A stretch of DNA of 64,000 nt from assembly GCA_041737385.1 (NCBI GenBank), contig JBGSRU010000002.1, forward strand, positions 461,437 through 525,436, in the 5' to 3' direction. The DNA comes from Candidatus Saccharimonadales bacterium. GTDB lineage: Bacteria > Patescibacteriota > Saccharimonadia > Saccharimonadales > SZUA-47. Of the stretch, positions 9,244 to 60,786 are shown one piece after another (positions within the stretch are counted from its first letter, which is position 1; the number at the start of each line of letters is the position of its first letter). The notes beneath the pieces were generated by a model. That model made no database searches. It saw nothing but the letters and a program-made list of their open reading frames with translations, and was not told the origin of the DNA. The position numbers and the translations under genes were made by a program.

Positions 9244-10512
9244 CTACTGGTTTAAGGATTGTTTTGCAGCTTCTAATTGAGGGTCGCGACTTGCTTTTCT
9301 GTCCTCGGTAGTTAGCTCTACTTTGCTATCAGGCTCAATGCCTTCTTTATCAATATTTTTACCACCCGGAGTGAACCATCGAGCAATAGTGACTTTTAAT
9401 GAGCCGCCGCCGTCTAAATTGATGAGCTGTTGAACACTGCCTTTACCGTAGCTCGTTTGACCAATTAATGTCGCTACATTGTTATCTTTGAGCGCTCCTG
9501 CGACTATTTCACTGGCGCTAGCACTACCCTTGTCGATAAGTACGACTGTTTTAACGTCTTTGAATATAGGATTCTTTACAGCAGTGAATGTTCTGATAGT
9601 CTCTCCGCCGCGTTTCTCTTCCAAAACAGTCGTTCCTTTCGTGAGCCATACATTGGAGACACCAACTGCTGCGTCAAGTAGCCCACCAGGATTGCCCCTC
9701 ACGTCTAGTACTACTTTTTTAACTCCTTCGTCCATGAATTCTTGGGCTGCTTTTTCAGTTAGCTCAGTTGTGTCAGTGCCGAAGCGGCCGATTGAGATTA
9801 TACCTACTCCGTTATCAATGTTCCATTCGACACTCGGTATATCAATCGTATCTCGAACGATAGGCACTTCAACTTGTTCGCCTTCACGAATAACCGTCAA
9901 CGTCACTGTTGATCCCTTTTCACCTCTGATCCGTTTAACCGCCTCTGAAACGGTGATATCTGTTGACGGCTCACCGTCTATTTCAGTAATAATGTCTTGT
10001 GGCCTGATGCCAGCTCTATCCGCTGGTGTGCCTTTGATCGGTGCGATAATAATGATGAAACTACCTTCTTTACCGAGCTCGGCGCCGATACCATCAAACG
10101 TTCCGTTCAAGTCTGCATTGAAATCTTGTGTTTCTTTGGCAGATAAATATTCTGTATATGTATCACCGACTGCGGCAACAGCGCCTTTTTTCAAACCATC
10201 GATAAGCTCATTTGCATCAATTTGCCCGTCATAATTGGCTTTCAACTTATCATAAATTTCTTCGAGTCCGTCAGTTGACAAGTCAGATGGTTGCTCCTGC
10301 GATACCACTGATGCAAGGTTCTCTGCACTATTTATGCTTATGCGACCGTCTCCAAACAGCCAACCAGCTGAAAAAATTACTGCTGCAGCAACAACAAAAC
10401 TAGCTCTCTTAACGATTTCGCGGCCTCGTTTTTTTACGTCAGCACTCACTTGCTCTTGATTTTGCTCCACTTTTTGGTCCGTCCTTATTCTCTTATTTAT
10501 GTCTAACCGCAA
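9244..10512 (-). CDS. S41 carboxy-terminal processing peptidase with PDZ domain
   Basis: N-terminal TM anchor, PDZ (GIRPQDIITEIDGE) and S41 core (DVRGNPGGLLD, VVLIDKGSASASEI). Overlaps the upstream M23 gene by 10 nt. Confidence 0.85.
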   Translation of the reverse strand: MRLDINKRIRTDQKVEQNQEQVSADVKKRGREIVKRASFVVAAAVIFSAGWLFGDGRISINSAENLASVVSQEQPSDLSTDGLEEIYDKLKANYDGQIDANELIDGLKKGAVAAVGDTYTEYLSAKETQDFNADLNGTFDGIGAELGKEGSFIIIIAPIKGTPADRAGIRPQDIITEIDGEPSTDITVSEAVKRIRGEKGSTVTLTVIREGEQVEVPIVRDTIDIPSVEWNIDNGVGIISIGRFGTDTTELTEKAAQEFMDEGVKKVVLDVRGNPGGLLDAAVGVSNVWLTKGTTVLEEKRGGETIRTFTAVKNPIFKDVKTVVLIDKGSASASEIVAGALKDNNVATLIGQTSYGKGSVQQLINLDGGGSLKVTIARWFTPGGKNIDKEGIEPDSKVELTTEDRKASRDPQLEAAKQSLNQ

Positions 10513-11660
10513 TAACCATACACTTGACCATCAGGAGTAATCATATGGGGATACCAAGTTTGCCATCCATCTCCATGATCAACAACGACGACGTAGCCCA
10601 AGCCAGCTCGGCAGCCCCGAAAAATTATTTGTCCGTCTGCTGCTGCCAATACAGCCGTACCTGATGATGTCGCAATATCTAAACCACTATGAAAACTGTT
10701 CTGCCCGCCGTTACATTGAGTCGCATAATACCATGCAGGAGCAACACAACCATAGCTCTGACTTATATAGCCACCACCACCAGCTATTGGCCATGAATAT
10801 CCATTTATTAATGAGCCTCCACCTGCAGATGGGTTTACAGTTGAGCCGTTGCGGTACACTTGAAAATGGATGTGAGGTCCAGTCGAAAATCCAGTACTTC
10901 CTACTTTACCAATCTGATTCCCTCTGTATACAGGGCCAAGGCTAGTAACGTTAGCAGCCGCTAATAGTGCAGCCAGCTGTGCTTCGGCTTTTTCGAGCTC
11001 AGCAAGTTGAGACGCAACAACTGATCGATATTTGTCTTCTTCACCTTGTGTTTGGTCTAGAATAGTCTGTTGTTCTTGTCTTTTCGCTGCGAGTAGAGAT
11101 TTTTGCTCTTCTTGACCTTTCAATAAGTCTTCTTGCTGTAATTTTTCTGTTTCAATCTGTTGTTTTAGCACTATTACTTTATCAGCTGATTCTTTGACTG
11201 AATTTTGCAAGCGTTGCAGATATTCTTGCTCATTGATAAAATCTGAGAAACTGTCACTTGCGACAAGAAGTTCAACTGTTGATGCACCTCGCCGCTCATA
11301 CAACGCACGCAACGACGCTTTTAGAAGACTTTTTTGACGTTCTAATTCTGCTTCTGTTTCAACCAGTCTTTGCCTAAGTTCTTGTAGCTTAACCTCTGTG
11401 AGTTCAATTTGTGTTGCTGCTAGAGATATCTCAATGTTTAATTCTTGAACTTTAGTCTGCAGTGATTCGGCTTGTTTCGAAAGTTCGACGATTTGACCAT
11501 TATTAGCTTCAATTTCAGCTTGCAGTACACTAGATTTTTCTTGTAGTTGTTTAATAGTTTCTGCTGATCCATATTGAGGGAAAAGTGCCACGACAAGCCC
11601 AACGACAGCAATAACTACTATGAACCTTTTTATTTGTATAAATTTTTGTGTTAGAAACAT
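10503..11660 (-). CDS. EnvC-like coiled-coil protein with (permuted) M23 peptidase domain
   Basis: Signal anchor and about 200 aa of coiled coil. The M23 motifs appear in reversed order: GSTGFSTGPHIHFQ comes before FHSGLDIATSSGTAVLAAADGQI...VDHGDGWQTWYPHM. Confidence 0.8.
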   Translation of the reverse strand: MFLTQKFIQIKRFIVVIAVVGLVVALFPQYGSAETIKQLQEKSSVLQAEIEANNGQIVELSKQAESLQTKVQELNIEISLAATQIELTEVKLQELRQRLVETEAELERQKSLLKASLRALYERRGASTVELLVASDSFSDFINEQEYLQRLQNSVKESADKVIVLKQQIETEKLQQEDLLKGQEEQKSLLAAKRQEQQTILDQTQGEEDKYRSVVASQLAELEKAEAQLAALLAAANVTSLGPVYRGNQIGKVGSTGFSTGPHIHFQVYRNGSTVNPSAGGGSLINGYSWPIAGGGGYISQSYGCVAPAWYYATQCNGGQNSFHSGLDIATSSGTAVLAAADGQIIFRGCRAGLGYVVVVDHGDGWQTWYPHMITPDGQVYGYCG

Positions 11661-45662: not shown

Positions 45663-46514
45663 ATGACAATTGAAGCATGGATACAAAAATCTAAGGTCCT
45701 ATTAACGGAAAAATTAGTTACCACCGCGCTACTAGACAGTGAGGTTTTACTCGCTGATATTCTTAAAAAGGATCGATCTTGGTTGCATAGCCACCCAGAA
45801 TATGTTCTGCAAAGGTCAGACCTTCGCATACTTGATGAGCAAATTACGAGGCGAGCCTTGCATGAACCTCTCGCGTATATTCGTGGCAAGCAGGAGTTTT
45901 ATGGCAGAGATTTTGTTGTTTCTAAACATACGCTGACTCCCCGTCCTGAAACCGAAATAATGGTAGAGATCTTTTTAGAGCTGACGAAAAGTGAGGCATT
46001 AAAGGAGAGTGAGAAACTACAAGTTCTAGACATAGGAACAGGTAGTGGGTGCGTTATAATTTCTGCATCCCTTGAGCTGACTCAAATCTCAAATCTCAAA
46101 TCTCAAATCTCATACCTAGGCCTAGATATTTCAATACTCGCTCTCGAAATAGCCAAAAAAAATGCACAGAAATTGAATGCAGACGTAGAGTTTATTCATT
46201 TCGACCTGATCAAAGATGATCTATCTTCAATCATTAAATATAAATCTTCAAATATCATCCTCGCTAATCTTCCCTACGTTCCCGATAATTTTGATATAAA
46301 CACTGCTGCAACTCATGAACCACCGTTTGCTATATTTGGTGGCGAAGACGGGCTTGATTTCTACAGATTACTATTTAGTAAACTTTCCGTCGCTACTAAG
46401 TATGTATTGACGGAAAGTTTGCCATTGCAGCACAAAGATTTGGCACTAATTGCAAAAGATGCTGGCTTTGCATTACAGACTACACAGGGCTTCATTCAGC
46501 TTTATACAAAATAA
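45663..46514 (+). CDS. prmC: release factor glutamine N5-methyltransferase PrmC/HemK
   Basis: Directly downstream of prfA. SAM motif VLDIGTGSGCVII and catalytic ANLPYVP (NPPY-type). Confidence 0.85.
   Translation: MTIEAWIQKSKVLLTEKLVTTALLDSEVLLADILKKDRSWLHSHPEYVLQRSDLRILDEQITRRALHEPLAYIRGKQEFYGRDFVVSKHTLTPRPETEIMVEIFLELTKSEALKESEKLQVLDIGTGSGCVIISASLELTQISNLKSQISYLGLDISILALEIAKKNAQKLNADVEFIHFDLIKDDLSSIIKYKSSNIILANLPYVPDNFDINTAATHEPPFAIFGGEDGLDFYRLLFSKLSVATKYVLTESLPLQHKDLALIAKDAGFALQTTQGFIQLYTK
46081..46112. repeat. heptanucleotide tandem repeat (CTCAAAT) x4.6 inside prmC
   Basis: ctcaaat ctcaaat ctcaaat ctcaaat ctca read directly from the sequence. Encodes TQISNLKSQIS between MTase motif I and the next strand. 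Confidence 0.95.
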
Positions 46515-52567: not shown

Positions 52568-55500
52568 CTACCTTATGTTTCTGCCTTCACACCATGCATG
52601 AGTACCTGCGTTGAAAGTTCCTGTACTTGTAAGGAATGTAACTGTCGTAATTGCATTTGTCGTATTTGACCAGTTGCCTGTTCCACTATAGCGACGGTTA
52701 TTTGTCCCTATGCCTGTTACTCCACTATAAGACCAGTCTACAATTTTTTGAGTATCCACAAAGTTAGTAATACGTAGTGTTGCACTTGCAGGTATTACTC
52801 CGGTGTCAAGACCCGTTAGTTGTATCTCGCTGTCTGAACTATCTTGAGCGTCACCAACAGCATTGTTAATTATATCGTACTCATTCCATCCGTAAGATGC
52901 TGCACCTGAATCACCGTTAAAACGTAAGTATATGCCGCCTGCTACCGATCGACCCTTGGTGTCTATTCTGCATTCAATATATTCAGTTCCTGATGCTAAG
53001 TTTAATGTAATTGTTCCACTCGCTGCACTAAGTGTTGATTCTGCTAGAACACGCTTTGAAGCACAATCAGACCAAAATCCACCTTCATAACAACGAGATT
53101 TACCGTCAGCAGAATTGTAGTAACTTCCTCCGTTAATACCCGTTGGATCTCCAGTTGTGTTTTTTGTATCTAGCACGAATAATACGCCAACAGCATCTGC
53201 CGTAATCGATCCGACTCTAACAGTTCCAGTACTTGTATCGATGCTAAAGTAACTTAAGCCTCCAACATTTCGAATATCTAAAGCTGTTGAACTAGTGGAT
53301 TGAATTTGTAATGCTCCTGTATTTGCTACAGTGAATACGGCTCCACCGTTTCTTTGAAGATTAATGAGATTCCCAGTAGCCGAAGTTTTGTTGACGGCCA
53401 ATACATCATTGTTTGAAGCATCCGTCTGGATGACTCCCGCAGCTAGCCTCAAATAACCACAGGTATTTGTATTACTTAGACAAATTGTACCGGCTTCATC
53501 TGGCAACGATACTGCCCTTGCAACTGTTGCGTTTGAGTTGATTGTTGATTGGCCTAAAACGAGTCCAGCGCTAAAGGTTTTCGTTCCACTGAAGGTTTGA
53601 GAGCCAGCAAGCTGAGCAACGTTAGCAGATAATCTTGCATCGGCTACAGTACCAGTCGATACATTTGTTCCGTTAAGAGCTGTAAGCCCTGAGCCATCTC
53701 CAGTAATTGCTGTACCTGCGATTGTACCAGTTACTGTAATATTTCCAGTAACGCCTACACTTGCACTGAAAGTTTGGCCACCATTCAGCAATGCAACGTT
53801 AGTTGAGAGTCTTGCGTCAGCGACAGTCCCGCTAGATATATTAGTACCATCCAATGTTGTTAGTCCGGAGCCGTTGCCACTGAATGCATTTGCTGATACG
53901 GTGCCGCTAAACGTTGGAGCGTTTCCTATCGTAATTGCTCCGCAAGTACCGCCGGTACCGAGAGTAATTGTATTGCCACCGCCGCTTAGATTACCACTTC
54001 CTGACGGACATATTAATGTAATGTTTCCTTGTACTGCGGTGTTAGCAGCTGAACCGTATATTACGTTGAGTGCGTTGCCGCTGAATGTCAAACCATTACC
54101 TGTTAGATCTGTAAATGCTTCGCCGTTGACTGTTAAGTTCTGGCCAGTTGTTACAGTTAGTCCAGCGCCAAATGTTTTAAGACCAGAGAATGATTGTGAT
54201 CCGGTTAACAATGCCACATTAGTAGATAATCTTGCGTCATCTAGAGTTCCTGAGGCAATGTTTGATGCATTGACATTGGTAATACTTCCACCGGATATAT
54301 TTGCACCATTTAAGTTAGTTAAGCCTGAGCCGTTTCCGCTAATAACTCCTGCTACGGAAAGCCCATTAGATACAATTACGTCACCTGTTGAGCCATCAAT
54401 ATTTATTCTCGCTAGACCATTCGTGATCAAGTTCAGATCAAACGTATCTGCTGTTCCTAGGTTTGCATCTATACCAAAACTGTTTCCGCTCTGAATAAAC
54501 GGCTGTGCAAATCCTGCTGTTAGTTCATCTGTTTTTTCCGCAATTGTCCAAGACTGTCCAGCAAGACTTAATTGTGCTCCACTACTTCCTGCTTGTGAAC
54601 ACACAACTTCGTAGTACTCATTATTTAGTGTTGTTTGTATGTAAGCGCTTGCTGAGTTAGAACTATTACCATCGGTCACATTTCTTACATATGAGTATGA
54701 TCCACCAGGTGTGTTATATGTAGTACCGTTAAGAAGTATACGGCAATAGATATTGTTTCTATTGGCGCCGCCATTGAAGCCACTAATATTATAGCTAATC
54801 TTATACCATCCTGGATTATCTATATAGACACGGGTATTATCAACTGAATTACTGTGTGCAAAACCTGGATCTTTTTTGGATTCAGAGCCCCAAGGAAGTG
54901 GCGTTGGAGTTGGATCATTAAGATCTGTTCCTCCAGCTGAATCATACACTTGAATAACTGCAACTCCTAAATTAACTGGAGTGCCTGTGAACGACTGCCA
55001 TGTCAGTCCGTCAAATCCTTGGAACGCTGTTCCGTTCCACCTAATGGTTCCGGCTACAGTGGCTGTTGAGTTCCCGATTACTAATCCATTATCAAATGTG
55101 TTTACTCCGCTAAATGTTTGTGTACCGTCTAACAAAGAAACATTTCCAGACAATCTACCATCATCAAGACTACCGGTTGCTATATTTGATGCACTTAACC
55201 CAGTTATTACTGAGCCTGAGATATTTGCTCCATCTAGATTAGTAATTCCGGATCCGTCACCACTAATAACTCCAGATACAGATAGTCCTCCGCCAATCTC
55301 TGTGTCGTTTCCGTTAGACTGGAGCTTTAATGCAGTAGTGCTTTGAATGCTTCCATCGCTAATCGTCGTTGAGCCAGCGCCGACAACAACTCCGCCTAAG
55401 AAATACCCTTGAAAGAATCGGTTGCTCTGCGAAGTATAGTCTGTTGTTGTTGCGCCTATATTCTGCACACTATACTTAGTCACTGTTCGTGCGCTTTCAA

Positions 55501-58500
55501 ATGTGATTGAAGGAGACACTATATATGTACCCGTCCCAGGATCCGACGCAATTCTCGTATAATAATCTTGCCCTATATTATCTATAAGTATCACGTCATT
55601 TAATTCAAACGAATCAGCAGCTAACGTAAGCGTCGTAGTGTTTGTACCTGTGCCACTAGTCGTACCCGTTGTTGCAGTAGCTGATTGATTAGCAACAAGA
55701 TCACCGCTGAGAGTAGTTAGTCCGGCAATCGAAACATCTCCACTATTAGATATGCCTATTCTCTCAATATTATTAGTTATGATAGATAAACCATTATTAT
55801 CACTAGTTCCAAGTATCGCTGGGCTTCCAAATGAATTACCATTCTGAACGAATGGTTGTCCTGATCCACCTGCGCCAATAGAACGAATTGCTTGGACGTA
55901 ACTTCCGCTAAAGACAATTGTATTTGTCGCATTAGAGACTTGTTGAGCCCACTGCAAAGTTATGTTGCCAGCTGTAGGGCCGTTTTTCACTGATCCCGTG
56001 ATTTCATATAAATCATTTGCGGCATTACCAGATATAAGACCTGTTGAGATTCCACATCCAAGCTGCGCAATCGAAGTTGCACCTTCTGGATCGCTGTAAG
56101 CAACCCGGCAAACTGCACCTGAAGGAGCAGCAACAGCAAATTTGATGTCAGGAACGGCTGCTGCATTAGCCTGAACAACAAACCTATACGTCCATTCTTC
56201 GTTTGGTCCTATTGAGAAAGTTAATTCATCATCATTTTGCAGGGTTATATTACTTATAACTGATTCATTAACTTGCTTAACTTTAGATACTATATTTTGA
56301 CTAGCGCCCGATCCCCCACCGCCAGATGTTAGAGATCTCCAAGTCGCTCCATCAAATCCTTCAAAGTCTAGACCGGTCCAACGAATTGTACCAGCTGTAG
56401 TAGATGAACTATTTCCAACCGTAAGACCTCCTGACGCAGTTACATTCCCGGTGCTATCAACACTAAAAGTATCAGTTCCATTGTTTTGTACTTTGAATTT
56501 TCCATTTGATCCGCTTAAAATATCGATTATAAAATTGCTATCAATCGCTGTGTCTGCGAGACTGATTGTAAAATCTTTATTGTCTGCAGTTAGAATTGAG
56601 GCAGAAAGTGAGTTGTCATATACGTCTTGAAGGGTGCTTAAACCGCCACTCCCGCTACCTGCACCTCCGTCATACTCAACGCTCCAGTAAACAGTAAAGT
56701 CATTTGTGTTAACAGGAAGAAAACCAGCACTAGTATCAAAAGCTAGCCCAATGGTATCTCCAGCAGAAAATGTTACAACTCCTGGGTTTAGAACAGAAGC
56801 TGACTGACGATTTGTAGTTGAATCCATGTCACAGACCGTTGAGCCAACTCGAGCTCCGTTAACCGTCCACCTAAGAGCGAGTGTGCCAGCGGTTATATTT
56901 GCAGTGTTTTTTATTAAACAAGTTCTGAAGCTACCATCTGCAGGTGCAGTGAAGCCCGTAACTCCTGCGACATTTGAAACAGCGGTTGCAGAAGTGAACA
57001 CCAAGGTTTCGACTATAGCACCCGTTGCGTTTGCTGGGGCATTTTGTAAGCCTGAAATAAAGCTTGCAGTTGTTCCTGTATAGGTACCGCCACTTCCACC
57101 ACCAATACAATCTTTCCATTCCCCATCTTCATAACAACGGAATTTACCGAGCGCGCTATTGTAGTACATTGCTCCATCAACGCCAGTTGGATCGGCAATA
57201 TCTGTTTTGGTATCGAGAACTAATAGCGTCCCTGCTGTGTCAGCTTGGCCGATATTTACATTCAGCCCGCTTTGTATGTTTATCCCCCCACTACCACTTT
57301 GTAGTAGTGTTGCCGCGGAGCCTACCGAGCCACCGAACGTTGCTTGTGAATTCAGCGTATCAACTTTCAAGAATGAGCTACCAAGTGTGTCTTGAACATC
57401 AAAAGCATTTACTGAATTTGTGTTATTTTGTGCCAAAACTGAACCTTTCAGTGTAGTTGAACCGTTTGTACCGAACTCTGCAACCACATTACCGTCTGTG
57501 ATGATTTGTAAGTTATTTGTATCTGTTGTACCGAGTATTGCCGTTGAGCCAAATGCATTCCCATTTTGTTCAAAACTAGTTCCACTTCCGCCGCCCGCTG
57601 CAACTCCAGTTATGGATATGGTATCAAGCCCAAAATCGTTATTCCAAACACTTCCAACTGAGCCAAGCGTCACCAAGAATCGAACTTGAGTTGAAGCATT
57701 TGATATCACTCCCGTTAAATCAAGATTTTCAAGATTCCACTGTTGTGTACCTCCTGTTGCGACATCTGGGCCACCTGATCCGTATGTACCGCGAGTTACC
57801 CAGCCAGCACTAGCTTCGTTAGTTTGAACTTCAACAATAGCAACATTGTCATTTCCTCTTTGGTTCCAGTAAAAATCAACAGTCCAATCATTTGTACTAG
57901 CGTCTATCACCGTGTTGTGAGTCATCGTGAAAGTATCGCCGCCAGCTGCAGGTGAAGTCGCTTCGGTATATACATAGCCATCTGGATTACCTCCTTGACC
58001 CGATGTAGGTCCAACATCTGTTGATGGAGTGTCATTTGTATCGTGAGACCAGGCTCTTGCGGTTCCTGAAGCGTTTAAGCCGTTAGAGCCGTTATCAGAT
58101 ACAAAGCTCCATGCAGATTCATCGGCATCGTTATCATTATCAAAAGTGTACGGCCCATAAACACCCGGACCGCCAGCACTTCCACTACCTAAAGCCGTTA
58201 ATGATTTCCAAACTATTCCATCATAACCCTCAAAATCAAATCCTGTCCATCTAATCATTCCAGCATTGGCATTCGATGTATTGCCAATTTGCAAACCGGC
58301 ACTTAGTATCGTTTCTCCAGATTTCAGAATGCTAAACACATCGACTCCATCACCTTGAAGTTGCAAAAGATTACCTGTACCAACTTGATTTATACGAAGC
58401 GCTGCTAGTGCGCTGCTAACCGTTTGGACATTAGCTGGTGCAAGTTGTGCGAAATCATCAGCAGTCTTAGCATTTCCTGCAGAGTCAACAAGGGCACCCG

Positions 58501-58942
58501 CCCTAAGAGCATACGGCACTGCGGTCAATTTAAATCGAGGTGTCATTTCTCCGTCGCTGTTGACGTTCATTGTTAGCCACATATCTTGATCCCATGGTAT
58601 TGAACCGCCAAACGCTGTTGTGTCGCCTAGATAAACACTGAAATAACCATTCTTAACCGTAACTGCAGAACCACCTGTTCTGGTTTCTGTCCACCAGTTA
58701 GTTCCAGCAGATGGATCATCATAAATCTTGAACTCGATATTGTACGACCCATCAGGAACCAACCCTCCAGTACTCGTTAATAATCTTCCCTGAAAGTTAA
58801 GTGTAGAAGAGGTTGCAGCGGTTGTGTTACTCGTGGATCCAAGAACAGTAACAGATAGAATAAGCAAAATAAAAAGTGGCAAAAATATACCTTTAAAAGA
58901 TATATTTTGCCACAGAGTGTGCCTTTGCTTATAGTTAGTCAT
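52568..58942 (-). CDS. giant (2124 aa) membrane-anchored surface protein built from tail-fibre-like repeats
   Basis: N-terminal signal anchor and an LNFQGRL...VPYALRA domain. MAM-like module at aa ~262-446 (ends NDFGLDTISI). Three copies of GTIRW(T/N)G..F(E/Q)G(F/Y)DG..W.S(L/F)T and four or more copies of G(D/N)GSGLT.L(N/D)G(A/T)N(I/V)S.G.(L/V)(D/A)DARLS.NVA.L.G.Q.FSG.KTF. Two Cys-pair motifs DPTG..G..YYNS..GK.RCYE.G.W.DC. Confidence 0.75.
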   Translation of the reverse strand: MTNYKQRHTLWQNISFKGIFLPLFILLILSVTVLGSTSNTTAATSSTLNFQGRLLTSTGGLVPDGSYNIEFKIYDDPSAGTNWWTETRTGGSAVTVKNGYFSVYLGDTTAFGGSIPWDQDMWLTMNVNSDGEMTPRFKLTAVPYALRAGALVDSAGNAKTADDFAQLAPANVQTVSSALAALRINQVGTGNLLQLQGDGVDVFSILKSGETILSAGLQIGNTSNANAGMIRWTGFDFEGYDGIVWKSLTALGSGSAGGPGVYGPYTFDNDNDADESAWSFVSDNGSNGLNASGTARAWSHDTNDTPSTDVGPTSGQGGNPDGYVYTEATSPAAGGDTFTMTHNTVIDASTNDWTVDFYWNQRGNDNVAIVEVQTNEASAGWVTRGTYGSGGPDVATGGTQQWNLENLDLTGVISNASTQVRFLVTLGSVGSVWNNDFGLDTISITGVAAGGGSGTSFEQNGNAFGSTAILGTTDTNNLQIITDGNVVAEFGTNGSTTLKGSVLAQNNTNSVNAFDVQDTLGSSFLKVDTLNSQATFGGSVGSAATLLQSGSGGINIQSGLNVNIGQADTAGTLLVLDTKTDIADPTGVDGAMYYNSALGKFRCYEDGEWKDCIGGGSGGTYTGTTASFISGLQNAPANATGAIVETLVFTSATAVSNVAGVTGFTAPADGSFRTCLIKNTANITAGTLALRWTVNGARVGSTVCDMDSTTNRQSASVLNPGVVTFSAGDTIGLAFDTSAGFLPVNTNDFTVYWSVEYDGGAGSGSGGLSTLQDVYDNSLSASILTADNKDFTISLADTAIDSNFIIDILSGSNGKFKVQNNGTDTFSVDSTGNVTASGGLTVGNSSSTTAGTIRWTGLDFEGFDGATWRSLTSGGGGSGASQNIVSKVKQVNESVISNITLQNDDELTFSIGPNEEWTYRFVVQANAAAVPDIKFAVAAPSGAVCRVAYSDPEGATSIAQLGCGISTGLISGNAANDLYEITGSVKNGPTAGNITLQWAQQVSNATNTIVFSGSYVQAIRSIGAGGSGQPFVQNGNSFGSPAILGTSDNNGLSIITNNIERIGISNSGDVSIAGLTTLSGDLVANQSATATTGTTSGTGTNTTTLTLAADSFELNDVILIDNIGQDYYTRIASDPGTGTYIVSPSITFESARTVTKYSVQNIGATTTDYTSQSNRFFQGYFLGGVVVGAGSTTISDGSIQSTTALKLQSNGNDTEIGGGLSVSGVISGDGSGITNLDGANISGSVITGLSASNIATGSLDDGRLSGNVSLLDGTQTFSGVNTFDNGLVIGNSTATVAGTIRWNGTAFQGFDGLTWQSFTGTPVNLGVAVIQVYDSAGGTDLNDPTPTPLPWGSESKKDPGFAHSNSVDNTRVYIDNPGWYKISYNISGFNGGANRNNIYCRILLNGTTYNTPGGSYSYVRNVTDGNSSNSASAYIQTTLNNEYYEVVCSQAGSSGAQLSLAGQSWTIAEKTDELTAGFAQPFIQSGNSFGIDANLGTADTFDLNLITNGLARINIDGSTGDVIVSNGLSVAGVISGNGSGLTNLNGANISGGSITNVNASNIASGTLDDARLSTNVALLTGSQSFSGLKTFGAGLTVTTGQNLTVNGEAFTDLTGNGLTFSGNALNVIYGSAANTAVQGNITLICPSGSGNLSGGGNTITLGTGGTCGAITIGNAPTFSGTVSANAFSGNGSGLTTLDGTNISSGTVADARLSTNVALLNGGQTFSASVGVTGNITVTGTIAGTAITGDGSGLTALNGTNVSTGTVADARLSANVAQLAGSQTFSGTKTFSAGLVLGQSTINSNATVARAVSLPDEAGTICLSNTNTCGYLRLAAGVIQTDASNNDVLAVNKTSATGNLINLQRNGGAVFTVANTGALQIQSTSSTALDIRNVGGLSYFSIDTSTGTVRVGSITADAVGVLFVLDTKNTTGDPTGINGGSYYNSADGKSRCYEGGFWSDCASKRVLAESTLSAASGTITLNLASGTEYIECRIDTKGRSVAGGIYLRFNGDSGAASYGWNEYDIINNAVGDAQDSSDSEIQLTGLDTGVIPASATLRITNFVDTQKIVDWSYSGVTGIGTNNRRYSGTGNWSNTTNAITTVTFLTSTGTFNAGTHAWCEGRNIR

Positions 58943-59074: not shown

Positions 59075-59310
59075 GAAATCATAAGAAGTATCACCGAAGT
59101 TATCCACAAACCATACATCGTAAAGTCAAAGCCGTTTTATAGCCAATTAACCCAAAAGCTCTAGTCAGCACTATAGCCGTAAATGACTAGCCGTATATTA
59201 CCATTACTTTAAGCGCTCACCCCCGCCAACAATCTAAACCACTCTGCGAAGGTCAGACCTTTGCAGAAAATATAAATGCTGGTTGTCAAATAGGTCGCTG
59301 CTATACGGGC

Positions 59311-59922
59311 TTACTCTGCGAGTTGATGTTTGATTTCGTCTAGCGTGTTTTTGTAGTCTGCGTGGTCCTGAATGAACGAACTGTACTCTGCCGTAGATTT
59401 ATCCATCATCACCCTTTCCGGTTTTACCCAGTTCGAGAATAATTTACCTAGATACTGAGATAGACTAGAGTACTCCCACTGCATGTAGTCACGAGGATTG
59501 AGGTGAATATAGCGAGTAATGTGCTCTAGGTACGCCTCATCATCGATCAACGACGCTTTGAATACTCCCTGGAACAGATGACCTACCCTGTTATGCCTCT
59601 TGTTGTAGTAGGTTGTGTACGATCCAGAAACCTTCCTCATTAACTCTGTTATCGATGCAGTGTTTTTGTCCAGATAGAGCAGCAGATGAAAATGGTTAGG
59701 CATGAGGCAGAAGGCGTTTAGTTCAACTCGCTCGCTGTAGTTTTCATATACATTACCTCTATTGTCTTCAGATTTTTCAGGGCTTAGATACCTTTTCAGT
59801 AGATTCATAAAGACAGCATAGTCTTCTTTGTCGCTATAGATGATTTGCTTATTCACACCTCTGTTGTAGACGTGATAGAAGTGCCCTTCTCCGTATTGCT
59901 TGATTACATTTTTGCTTGGCAT
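59311..59922 (-). CDS. IS200/IS605-family Y1 (HUH) transposase, RAYT-like
   Basis: HFYHVYNRGVNKQ N-terminus, HUH motif MPNHFHLLL, Tyr helix SYTTYYNKRHNRVGHLFQGVFKA and YIHLNPRD. 203 aa. Confidence 0.8.
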   Translation of the reverse strand: MPSKNVIKQYGEGHFYHVYNRGVNKQIIYSDKEDYAVFMNLLKRYLSPEKSEDNRGNVYENYSERVELNAFCLMPNHFHLLLYLDKNTASITELMRKVSGSYTTYYNKRHNRVGHLFQGVFKASLIDDEAYLEHITRYIHLNPRDYMQWEYSSLSQYLGKLFSNWVKPERVMMDKSTAEYSSFIQDHADYKNTLDEIKHQLAE

Positions 59923-59952
59923 ACTTACACTCTACTCCCATCTACTCCGCTT

Positions 59953-60019
59953 TGCAAAGGTCAGACCTCCGCGACTAAAAATAGGACAAATAACACCTTG
60001 CGGAGGTCTGACCTTTGCA
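59953..60019. repeat. perfect 20-bp inverted repeat (REP doublet) with 27-nt spacer
   Basis: tgcaaaggtcagacctccgc ... gcggaggtctgacctttgca. Each arm contains the near-palindromic core aggtc-n-gacct. Confidence 0.9.
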
Positions 60020-60220: not shown

Positions 60221-60487
60221 CTAGTAGACTTGGCTATGGGTGCCAATGTCTAAGAATATGAAAGTATCGTCTGTTTCTTTATATATTATCCTTATGTCTC
60301 CCGATATTGAAAAAGCTCGCAAGCCTGACTTTTTGCCTATAAGCGCGTGGTCGTTGATTGGGTTACCCCTTTCTCCATTTAAAAATATTCTTACTCGTTC
60401 TTCGAATTGTTTTTGTATCTTTGGATTTCTAGCAACTCGAGACAAATAGTTCTTTGTGAACTTTTTATCTCTTTGTATGTTTTTCAT
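60221..60487 (-). CDS. type II toxin, RelE/YafQ (mRNA interferase) family
   Basis: 88 aa. KFTKNY...NDHALIGKKSGLRAFSISGDIRIIYKETDDTFIFLDIGTHSQVY fits the RelE/YafQ C-terminal pattern (H.L.G....R....D.R.iY.......l..iG.Hs.vY). 4-nt overlap with the upstream antitoxin. Confidence 0.8.
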   Translation of the reverse strand: MKNIQRDKKFTKNYLSRVARNPKIQKQFEERVRIFLNGERGNPINDHALIGKKSGLRAFSISGDIRIIYKETDDTFIFLDIGTHSQVY

Positions 60488-60786
60488 AATTCTCTTAAGT
60501 CAGCTAGAAATTCTTCTGGATCGGTATAAGTCTTCACTTTGCCGGCTTTTAAGTCTTTTTCGAACCCTTCTAGTTGTTTCATGTAGCGAGCTTCGGCTTC
60601 AGGGCTTAATTTTCGTTCATCTGAATTAGTAAGGTTGAACTGCAAATTATTATTCAACACCGTGCTGTACATAACTCTTGTGAAATCCTGTACGGAACTA
60701 AAGCCCATAGACTTTGCATGTTTTTCTACCCTATCGCGCAAGGTCTTATCTAGCGGTATTTGAAGTTTAACGGTTGAATCACTCAT
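60484..60786 (-). CDS. type II antitoxin (RelB/DinJ-like, ribbon-helix-helix N-terminus)
   Basis: 100 aa. N-terminal VKLQIPLDKTLRDRVEKHAKSMGFSSVQDF is RHH-like. Position and ATGA coupling to the toxin gene support the call. Confidence 0.7.
   Translation of the reverse strand: MSDSTVKLQIPLDKTLRDRVEKHAKSMGFSSVQDFTRVMYSTVLNNNLQFNLTNSDERKLSPEAEARYMKQLEGFEKDLKAGKVKTYTDPEEFLADLREL

Follow-up and report, generated by a model that had tools for sequence, protein, structure and literature searches.

A probable TIRtron-like module in Saccharibacteria: an apparently single-copy HUH/Y1 gene, its hairpin-forming palindromes and a palindrome site in prmC

We have analysed a 64-kb stretch of DNA from a Candidatus Saccharimonadales bacterium (assembly GCA_041737385.1, contig JBGSRU010000002.1, positions 461,437 to 525,436 of the forward strand), which is called the window below. 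It contains the gene of a 203-residue homolog of the HUH/Y1 endonuclease-transposases that act on single-stranded DNA (ssDNA), referred to as the Y1 gene, and four copies of a short palindrome, which we name units A to D (Table 1). Unit A follows the Y1 gene, units B and C form an inverted doublet in front of it, and unit D lies inside prmC. An earlier reading of the same DNA from its letters (the sequence-only reading) had described the locus as a transposase of the RAYT type, flanked by palindromes resembling the repetitive extragenic palindromic (REP) sequences.

Table 1. Positions of the Y1 gene, the palindrome units and other features in the window.
Feature	Position	Strand	Remarks
Y1 gene (203-residue HUH/Y1 ssDNA endonuclease-transposase homolog, TIRYT type)	59311..59922	-	Based on Pfam, motifs and fold
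Unit A, TGCGAAGGTCAGACCTTTGCA	59245..59265	+	45 nt past the Y1 stop codon; best hairpin on the + strand, with one G:T pair
Unit B, - strand CGCGGAGGTCTGACCTTTGCA	59953..59973	-	30 nt upstream of the Y1 ATG; inner arm of the doublet
Unit C, TGCGGAGGTCTGACCTTTGCA	59999..60019	+	Outer arm of the doublet; orientation as A
B+C inverted doublet, REPIN-like	59953..60019	.	Perfect 20-bp stem (100% complementary), 27-nt spacer
Unit D, - strand TGCGAAGGTCTGACCTTTGCA	45808..45828	-	Inside prmC; 1 mismatch; encodes L-Q-R-S-D-L-R, residues 49-55
Heptanucleotide tandem repeat	46081..46112		Inside prmC; CTCAAAT x 4.6, perfect
YafQ/RelE-type toxin gene	60221..60487	-	Pfam YafQ_toxin, E 1e-10; directly upstream of B+C and the Y1 gene
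Putative antitoxin gene	60484..60786	-	100 residues; overlaps the toxin gene upstream
Giant Gly/Thr/Ser-rich open reading frame	52568..58942	-	2124 residues; no Pfam match
Giant Gly/Thr/Ser-rich open reading frame	60841..63948	-	Runs off the window end; Peptidase_S74 (endosialidase chaperone) domain only

The three units around the Y1 gene follow a 21-nt consensus, TGCrrAGGTCwGACCTyyGCA, with the core AGGTCnGACCT, and each of them is a near-palindrome in itself. When all four units are read on the strand which has G:T pairs at the imperfect stem positions (the + strand in the case of A and C, the - strand in that of B and D), the sequence becomes (T/C)GCGrAGGTCwGACCTTTGCA. The sequence-only reading had reported a perfect 20-bp inverted repeat at 59953-59972 and 60000-60019 with 27 nt between the arms, as well as a third copy at 59246-59265 (unit A) with 2 mismatches, the core AGGTC-N-GACCT and the same orientation as the copy at 60000. 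Both claims are confirmed by our analysis. In addition, A and C are 87% complementary over 23 nt. A search of the window for the 20-mer with up to 3 mismatches gave 5 matches, while 0.00 were expected from 100 shuffles, and the 13-nt core was found at 4 sites (0.04 expected). Chance is no explanation for these copies. We have also calculated the ssDNA folds. The doublet B+C reaches -26.5 kcal/mol (z -8.9), unit A -8.9 kcal/mol (z -4.3), the - strand of unit D -6.6 kcal/mol (z -4.0) and unit C -4.8 kcal/mol (z -2.3), that is, all of these fold better than their shuffles.

The Y1 protein carries the motifs YHVYNRG, PNHFHLLL, LFQ and RYIHLNP, and matches the Pfam family Y1_Tnp (PF01797) with an E of 3.6e-10 (40.5 bits, cut-off 23). 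The HUH motif named in the sequence-only reading is real, and consists of H77-F-H79 within PNHFHLLL. In the tyrosine helix, the catalytic residue is Y138 within RYIHLNP, and none of those in the SYTTYY stretch. Across 38 aligned homologs, H77, H79 and Y138 are invariant, and so are Y16-H17, N20-R21, Q118 and R137/H140/N142/P143; this indicates that the catalytic machinery is under purifying selection. In the AlphaFold model of the protein (pLDDT 91.6), Y138 is located at the end of helix 129-140. The top PDB match of this model in Foldseek is 4ER8, a complex of E. coli TnpA-REP with a REP hairpin (14% identity, 168 columns, E 1.1e-6), followed by the TnpA of ISDra2 and IS608 (E 2e-4 or weaker, ~130-140 columns), and the 16 best PDB matches are TnpA-REP, ISDra2 or IS608 without exception. 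At the sequence level, a PDB search with the single Y1 protein found no TnpA, and a search with the family profile gave marginal matches only (E ~0.1). Overall, the fold, as modelled, and the catalytic residues are shown to be those of the TnpA-REP/IS200-type enzymes.

Homologs of the Y1 protein are numerous (3743 at E <=0.001). The best-scoring 120 of them have 194-224 residues, and nearly all belong to 90% clusters that have one member on one contig; the named ones among these 120 are almost all labelled Saccharibacteria. The exact Y1 protein occurs once, on one 531-kb NCBI contig.

For the family assignment we have followed Quentin et al. 2018 (PMC6006769), who separate the TnpA-Y1 proteins into the IS200 type (Y---Q) and class 2 (Y---NP). 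They recognise subclass 2.1, a part of class 2, by NH[YF]H, FQ (or W[EQ]) and Y[IV]HLNP. Its members have a median length of 238 residues and a C-terminal tail (Bac_DnaA_C, HTH_23 or HTH_28) resembling a helix-turn-helix (HTH); according to the same study the subclass equals RAYT group 1 of Bertels (PMC5581495) and most of the TIRYTs of Di Nocera (PMC3733652). The IS200 transposases (class 1, subclass 1.1) are described there by Y---Q, DH[VI]H, a core-only length of ~150 residues and multiple, near-identical copies (PMC6006769). The Y1 protein shows the class-2 signature (Y138-I-H-L-N142-P143) and the complete motif set of subclass 2.1 (NHFH, LFQ, YIHLNP), though with 203 residues it is shorter than the typical member. 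It departs from the IS200 signature in having YIHLNP instead of Y---Q and NHFH instead of DH[VI]H, as well as in its length.

The published RAYT and TIRYT sequences were rebuilt from Additional file 5 of Di Nocera and scored with a profile of 120 family homologs. The main TIRYT group (11 TIRYTs) obtains 62-100 bits, while the canonical RAYTs obtain 12-41 bits (12 for the E. coli RAYT, 19-41 for those of Pseudomonas and Stenotrophomonas), a range into which the Acidobacteria TIRYT group falls as well. A W-x-x-SS motif after NP is common to the Y1 protein and the TIRYTs. Among NCBIfam models, REP_Tyr_transpos (NF047646) is the top match, with 51.2 bits below its cut-off of 80. On the palindromes no GT[AG]G foot was found; the foot is yTGC (e.g., cactcTGCGAAGG). 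The TIR motif GGGGWSAS, compared by eye, is matched by GAGGTCAG at 7 of 8 positions and by AAGGTCAG at 6 of 8, and the half-site rAGGTCAG matches at 7 of 8. Motifs, sequence score and fold place the Y1 protein in class 2 of TnpA-Y1, among the TIRYTs (Quentin subclass 2.1, Bertels RAYT group 1), and it is neither an IS200 transposase nor a canonical REP-associated (GTAG-REP) RAYT.

We have then examined the palindromes in relatives, whose loci carry L numbers here. In four orthologous Saccharibacteria loci with 56-70% protein identity, flanking palindromes with the core AAGGTCnGACCTT are present in 4/4, and the orthologs have a downstream palindrome at the position equivalent to unit A. Two 70%-identical orthologs, L003 and L004, have an upstream inverted doublet too, with a 25-nt spacer. 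When 80 further metagenome loci with 34-52% identity were taken in, the exact core GGTCnGACC was seen to flank 16 of the 86 family genes. As the exact core is this rare, a search independent of the sequence was needed to reveal locus-specific palindromes. We looked for any repeat of at least 12 nt common to the upstream and downstream flanks in the 66 genes with both flanks, and used mismatched flanks as control. Such a repeat was found in 50 of the 66 genes but in only 8 of 391 mismatched controls. Most of the common repeats (39/50) fall in hairpin-forming palindromes, and relative to the gene, the median position of the repeat centres is -39 nt (start) and +15 nt (stop).

These palindromes are locus-specific, yet built on one template, (T)rCArGG-N5-7-CCyTGy(A); in another lineage, for example, the palindrome reads TGTACAAGGTTCAACCTTGTACA. 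Furthermore, the similarity of the palindrome cores increases with the similarity of the proteins (rho 0.21), to a degree that was reached by 12 of 500 permutations. This is the pattern of 'each enzyme has its own repeat', as it is known for REPtrons and TIRtrons.

In locus L184, two diverged Y1 paralogs (6486-7136 and 9974-10633) lie 3 kb apart in opposite orientation and have their own palindromes, CACCTTAAAGGTG and CACCTGGAAGGTG. The palindrome core is also seen within the Y1 gene itself in L133, L135, L139, L140, L142, L147, L174 and L080, mostly at ~nt 150 and ~nt 450, and in L142 at nt 666 near the stop. These internal cores recall the REP insertions inside tnpA-REP genes reported for Quentin subclass 2.4 (PMC6006769).

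To follow the palindrome away from Y1 genes, one genome per species was scanned with GCRRAGGTCNGACCTYYGC. The scan gave at least 119 stretches, and the counts per genome are lower bounds. Among the matches listed, ~45 of 119 stretches come from metagenome-assembled genomes (MAGs) of Patescibacteria, namely Saccharibacteria, Paceibacterota, Nealson-, Kaiser-, Adler-, Taylor-, Gribaldo- and Staskawicz-bacteria, with three MAGs labelled only 'bacterium' included in the group count. In the same matches, the genomes with sites on several contigs are all Patescibacteria, and the other genomes have single sites, as chance would yield. The variant is uniform per genome, e.g., GCGAAGGTCsGACCTTCGC in a Nealsonbacteria MAG and GCAGAGGTCwGACCTCTGC in a Paceibacterota MAG; the latter has at least 8 sites on three contigs with 461 kb in total. 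Inverted doublets are frequent (they are present in L003, L021, L025, L033, L060, L066, L094 and L120), and most of the sites have no Y1 gene in their 8-kb piece. Overall, the density is ~1 extra site per 60-80 kb, on the order of 10-20 per genome, which is in line with Bertels et al. 2017 (PMC5581495), where the flanking 16-mers of group 1 average ~12 copies per replicon.

The enrichment of the 20-mer between genes that the sequence-only reading had led us to look for did not appear, neither in the window, where the sole distant copy is inside prmC, nor at the low density seen across the family. Sites are found in frame in housekeeping genes, in three reading frames and on both strands, with GatB, TopA, DprA, PBP2, RNase R, TsaD, an rRNA methyltransferase and PrmC as hosts. 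The doublet in TopA goes with ~20 extra residues relative to E. coli TopA, and that in GatB with ~29 relative to T. maritima GatB, whereas the doublet in RNase R goes with ~4 extra residues only and the single copy in PrmC with no extra length. It is thus ruled out that every intragenic copy is an insertion, given the 0 extra residues in PrmC (118 homologs) and ~4 in RNase R: some copies look like in-frame insertions and others do not. A function as DNA-uptake sequence was likewise considered and has been rejected on account of the density, as uptake sequences occur roughly once per kb.

One further intragenic case is of a composite kind. The DprA homolog of a Patescibacteria MAG (L039, 782-1954, - strand) has two copies of a ~120-nt unit, near the N- and the C-terminus respectively, and this unit is made of one and a half palindromes and encodes the peptide ...FEVGPSFAGPLLRCGQKNVRPLENGNEVRPQQRSDLCGMQ...

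The prmC site was studied separately. A palindrome is present at prmC codons 48-55 in 7/7 other Saccharibacteria loci read as DNA, though these seven were picked by their peptide and are not an unbiased sample, and L207 and L208 have the same sequence. The codons read TGCAAAGGTCAGACCTTCGCA in the window, TGCAGAGGTCTGACCTCCGCA in L206, GCAGAGGTCTGACCTCCGC in L061, TGCAAAGGTCGGACCTCCGCA in L209, TGCAGAGATCGGACCTCCGCA in L211 (where one arm position is decayed), TGCAAGGTCCGACCCTGCA in L205 and ACTGTACAAGGTTCAACCTTGTACAGT in L207/L208. The variants differ largely by synonymous changes, which are paired across the stem (CAA...CTT vs CAG...CTC). The protein is not lengthened at this place. Pfam PrmC_N aligns end to end (residues 6-75 with model positions 2-71 of 71), T. 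maritima HemK is ungapped against PrmC at unit D, and 118 PrmC homologs of Saccharibacteria are nearly all of equal length here, whether they have a palindrome-type peptide or not. Among these 118, ~27 have a peptide of the xRSDL type and ~24 of the QG[PS]xL type, so that roughly 45% are compatible with a palindrome.

The palindromes in prmC can be connected with those beside Y1 genes by three comparisons. Over 20 nt, the prmC site of L209 does not differ from the palindrome in front of Y1 in L003, which belongs to another species (70% nucleotide identity in parAB), and the site of L207 is identical over 27 nt to a palindrome flanking Y1 in L131. The palindrome of L211 has a G centre, as the dispersed copies of the same MAG (2_bin.50) do. 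The match between prmC and Y1 thus rests on the window (same genome), on 2_bin.50 (same MAG) and on the pairs L209/L003 and L207/L131 (cross-species); prmC and Y1 on one contig were not found in a second genome, as L205-L211 are without Y1 and the Y1 loci without prmC. The simplest reading of these sequences is that the prmC palindrome would be an ancient hairpin which selection has preserved and which co-evolves with the enzyme. In terms of function, it would most simply be a long-maintained substrate site of the Y1 enzyme, and its agreement with the Y1-flanking palindromes hints at a host function rather than junk DNA. One may go further and take the Y1 enzyme as a host-domesticated nuclease for single-strand hairpins, serving a few maintained chromosomal hairpins, of which the clearest would be that in codons 48-55 of the essential prmC, with a position kept across Saccharibacteria and a sequence co-evolved with the Y1-flanking palindromes. 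We put this last proposal forward tentatively, and consider it rather doubtful at present.

Elsewhere in prmC, the perfect CTCAAAT tandem repeat lies within an insertion relative to T. maritima HemK. A change by one unit would shift the frame, so this may be a site of slippage or phase variation.

Based on the above analyses, we interpret the locus as a TIRtron/REPtron-like module, i.e., a vertically inherited, single-copy class-2 HUH/Y1 gene bracketed by cognate 21-nt hairpin-forming palindromes, and would give this interpretation a probability of roughly 0.7. By analogy with E. coli TnpA-REP and IS608 TnpA, the Y1 protein would bind the palindromes as ssDNA hairpins, probably at replication forks. 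Beside the hairpin, the strand would be cut and rejoined by way of a 5'-phosphotyrosine bond with Y138, and H77/H79 would hold the metal. The activity of the enzyme might occasionally copy or homogenise palindromes, and this would account for the uniform variant peculiar to each genome. The Y1 gene itself would no longer act as an insertion sequence (IS). A possible role of the B+C doublet, which separates the toxin gene from the Y1 start, is to insulate or regulate the expression of Y1.

On the other hand, several observations weigh against this interpretation. Quentin et al. 2018 (PMC6006769) found no REP-like sequences for subclass 2.1. In the C-terminal tail of the Y1 protein (residues 145-203) there is no Pfam match beyond Y1_Tnp at E up to 1 and an HTH was undetected, although subclass 2.1 typically has one. 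A common flank repeat could not be detected in 16 of the 66 family genes. Unit B alone folds no better than its shuffles (-3.6 kcal/mol, z -0.3). Dispersal is very low, with ~6 distant sites over the 479 kb that flank the family genes; unit D is the only distant copy in the window and is intragenic, so mobilisation is weakly evidenced in the source genome. Moreover, the prmC copy is not an insertion because it brings no length change relative to PrmC homologs, and insertion consequently leaves part of the intragenic copies unexplained. Finally, we infer the binding and cleavage of the palindromes by Y1 from homology to solved enzymes with which it shares 10-16% identity.

Other explanations account for parts of the same evidence. 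An autonomous IS of the IS200/IS605 type would have A and C as its left and right subterminal hairpins and would transpose the 775-bp unit 59245-60019 whole. Indeed, A and C have the same orientation around ~0.8 kb, which is near IS200 size, the fold is common to IS608 and ISDra2 TnpA, and homologs stand in differing neighbourhoods in more distant genomes. The Y1 gene is also missing from its syntenic slot in L205, L207, L209 and L211 and located elsewhere in L002 and L005; as the occupancy of the slot varies, Y1 must have moved or been lost over long times. We still regard such an element as unlikely, for the protein has Y---NP rather than Y---Q and 203 rather than ~150 residues, its best fold match is TnpA-REP and no IS transposase, and the gene is kept between parA and the giant Peptidase_S74 protein in both the window and L003, at 70% protein identity. 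An ordinary IS200 would be expected to confine the 20-mer to its own locus and to be present in multiple identical copies. What we have found is a palindrome that also occurs solo, far from any Y1 gene, an exact protein seen once on one contig, and clusters that are mostly single-member. The canonical REP/RAYT system, in which a RAYT of group 2/3 mobilises abundant intergenic GTAG-tagged REPs or REPINs, with dispersed extragenic copies expected in the tens to hundreds, is closest to what had been proposed for this genome of the candidate phyla radiation. From that proposal we keep a RAYT-like, apparently single-copy gene with its own palindromes and a REPIN-like doublet in Saccharibacteria. 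The bracketing palindromes and the inverted doublet would suit a canonical system, and so would the best fold match (E. coli TnpA-REP) and the top NCBIfam match (REP_Tyr_transpos). However, the NCBIfam model is matched with 51.2 bits where 80 are required, RAYTs reach 12-41 bits with the family profile and the main TIRYTs 62-100, the hairpins are without the GT[AG]G foot, and the single distant copy in the window is intragenic. These membership tests have largely refuted the canonical system, which we hold to be highly improbable.

The palindromes could also be double-stranded sites of another protein, such as a dimeric regulator or a ParB-type protein with a parS-like centromere, and their place beside Y1 would then concern regulation rather than catalysis. 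All four copies in the window are within ~8 kb of parAB, and the upstream unit is at a promoter/operator position. As is often the case for parS sites, the copies are few, sometimes lie within genes and keep their position. In addition, canonical parS (TGTTTCACGTGAAACA, up to 3 mismatches) was found neither in the window nor in nine related loci containing parAB (L001, L003, L205-L211), nor, with up to 2 mismatches, in the 1.7 Mb of DNA examined in total. These genomes may use a non-canonical centromere site. Yet parAB is nearby only in L001, L003 and L004 out of 85 Y1 loci, while the flanking repeat is present in 50 of 66 genes. The palindrome sequence is very different between genomes whereas the HTH of ParB is ordinary, and the paralogous Y1 genes of L184, only 3 kb apart, have different palindromes. 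We have rejected the parS reading since the palindromes follow Y1 genes rather than parAB, and think a double-stranded site of this general kind very unlikely. A role at the RNA level alone, as terminators, insulators or mRNA stabilisers with Y1 irrelevant, would fit the stability of the hairpins, especially that of B+C between the toxin and Y1 genes, and a passage in PMC3733652 mentions effects of REPs on mRNA stability elsewhere. Against it, the promoter and terminator scan showed no T-run or terminator-like site coincident with any unit, Rfam gave no family at threshold (sub-threshold miRNA-like hairpin matches only), the palindrome occurs in coding regions in three frames and on both strands, and its locus-specific match to Y1 genes would be left unexplained. 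As the whole explanation it appears highly improbable, but as a secondary function an RNA-level role is compatible with the TIRtron/REPtron-like module.

Among known systems, the TIRYT/TIRtron of Di Nocera et al. 2013 (PMC3733652) has in common with our locus the motif set and a gene placed between inverted repeats at fixed short distances, and some of the published TIR families are self-complementary, dimeric and moderately abundant (PMC3733652). Compared with TIRYTs and subclass 2.1, the Y1 protein here is shorter and its HTH-like tail undetected, the repeats are true hairpin palindromes with a group-wide template (CArGG-N5-7-CCyTG), and one copy is at the positionally conserved prmC site. 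Non-IS TnpA-Y1 genes have been reported chiefly from large genomes (PMC6006769), while here they are in Patescibacteria with genomes of roughly 1 Mb. With the E. coli TnpA-REP (subclass 2.2; REPtron, REP/BIME; PDB 4ER8) the locus shares Y---NP, the apparently single copy and cognate hairpins including inverted pairs. It differs in sequence (14% identity, 12 bits), in the lack of a GTAG foot, in a copy number tens of times lower, and in copies that are often intragenic instead of extragenic. The TnpA of IS200/IS605 (IS608, ISDra2) has the same HUH/Y1 fold and subterminal hairpins of one orientation at both ends, as A and C are; unlike these elements, Y1 here is apparently single-copy and is syntenic, with solo palindromes elsewhere. 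Palindromes in frame in housekeeping genes of a reduced genome are also known from Rickettsia, whose palindromic elements (RPEs) were reportedly described by Ogata and co-workers in 2000 as inserted in frame in protein-coding genes. RPEs are ~100-150 bp long, and to our knowledge have no dedicated enzyme. The unit here, in contrast, is 21 nt or a ~50-nt doublet, is linked to Y1 and sometimes adds no length.

REPs inside genes were already known (PMC6006769, PMC3733652). In full-text literature searches, we found nothing linking RAYT, REPIN, TIRYT or IS200-type palindromes with Patescibacteria or Saccharibacteria. What is new here is the lineage, with its ~1-Mb genomes, the clear hairpins for a subclass said to lack them, and a template common to many Patescibacteria lineages. 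The positionally conserved, co-varying site in prmC is new as well, and a conserved intragenic target is potentially important. RAYT-like proteins have been regarded as 'domesticated transposases' whose host role has been debated since about 2010, and the TIRYT/subclass 2.1 proteins are the least understood group. If the proposal of a host-domesticated hairpin nuclease is true, no earlier chromosomal target with a conserved position would be known for a RAYT/TIRYT-like protein, and this one would belong to a genome with hardly any room for junk. If the enzyme acts there, the target set would be small, countable and conserved, and would allow a cleaner test of RAYT function than Pseudomonas or E. 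coli, with their REPs in the hundreds, can offer. For annotation, short palindromes in the genes of Patescibacteria may be enzyme substrates and not noise.

As for the genomic neighbourhood, the block rpmE-prfA-prmC-htrA-x-lytR-lepB-parB-parA-giant surface protein is conserved across Saccharibacteria. A giant protein of the S74, BclA_C or beta-helix kind beside parA belongs to the conserved features, and the gene of 2124 residues does not. The S74 reading frame that runs off the window end has at least 1736 residues on an overlapping Logan contig (L001), where it is cut at the contig end too. The sequence-only reading had taken the two giant reading frames for adhesin genes, a label that is putative for proteins with no Pfam match in one case and a Peptidase_S74 domain alone in the other, and had supposed that the Y1 locus between them could promote rearrangement. 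The orthologous L003 is without the toxin-antitoxin pair that lies in front of the B+C doublet in the window. Overall, the region varies between species, and we found nothing here that links this variation to the Y1 enzyme. On the plus strand the GC skew is negative over 1-58 kb, which makes the minus strand the leading one in this part. In L209 (16189-16941), parA is apparently split into two open reading frames of 70 and 172 residues, possibly by a frameshift or an assembly error.

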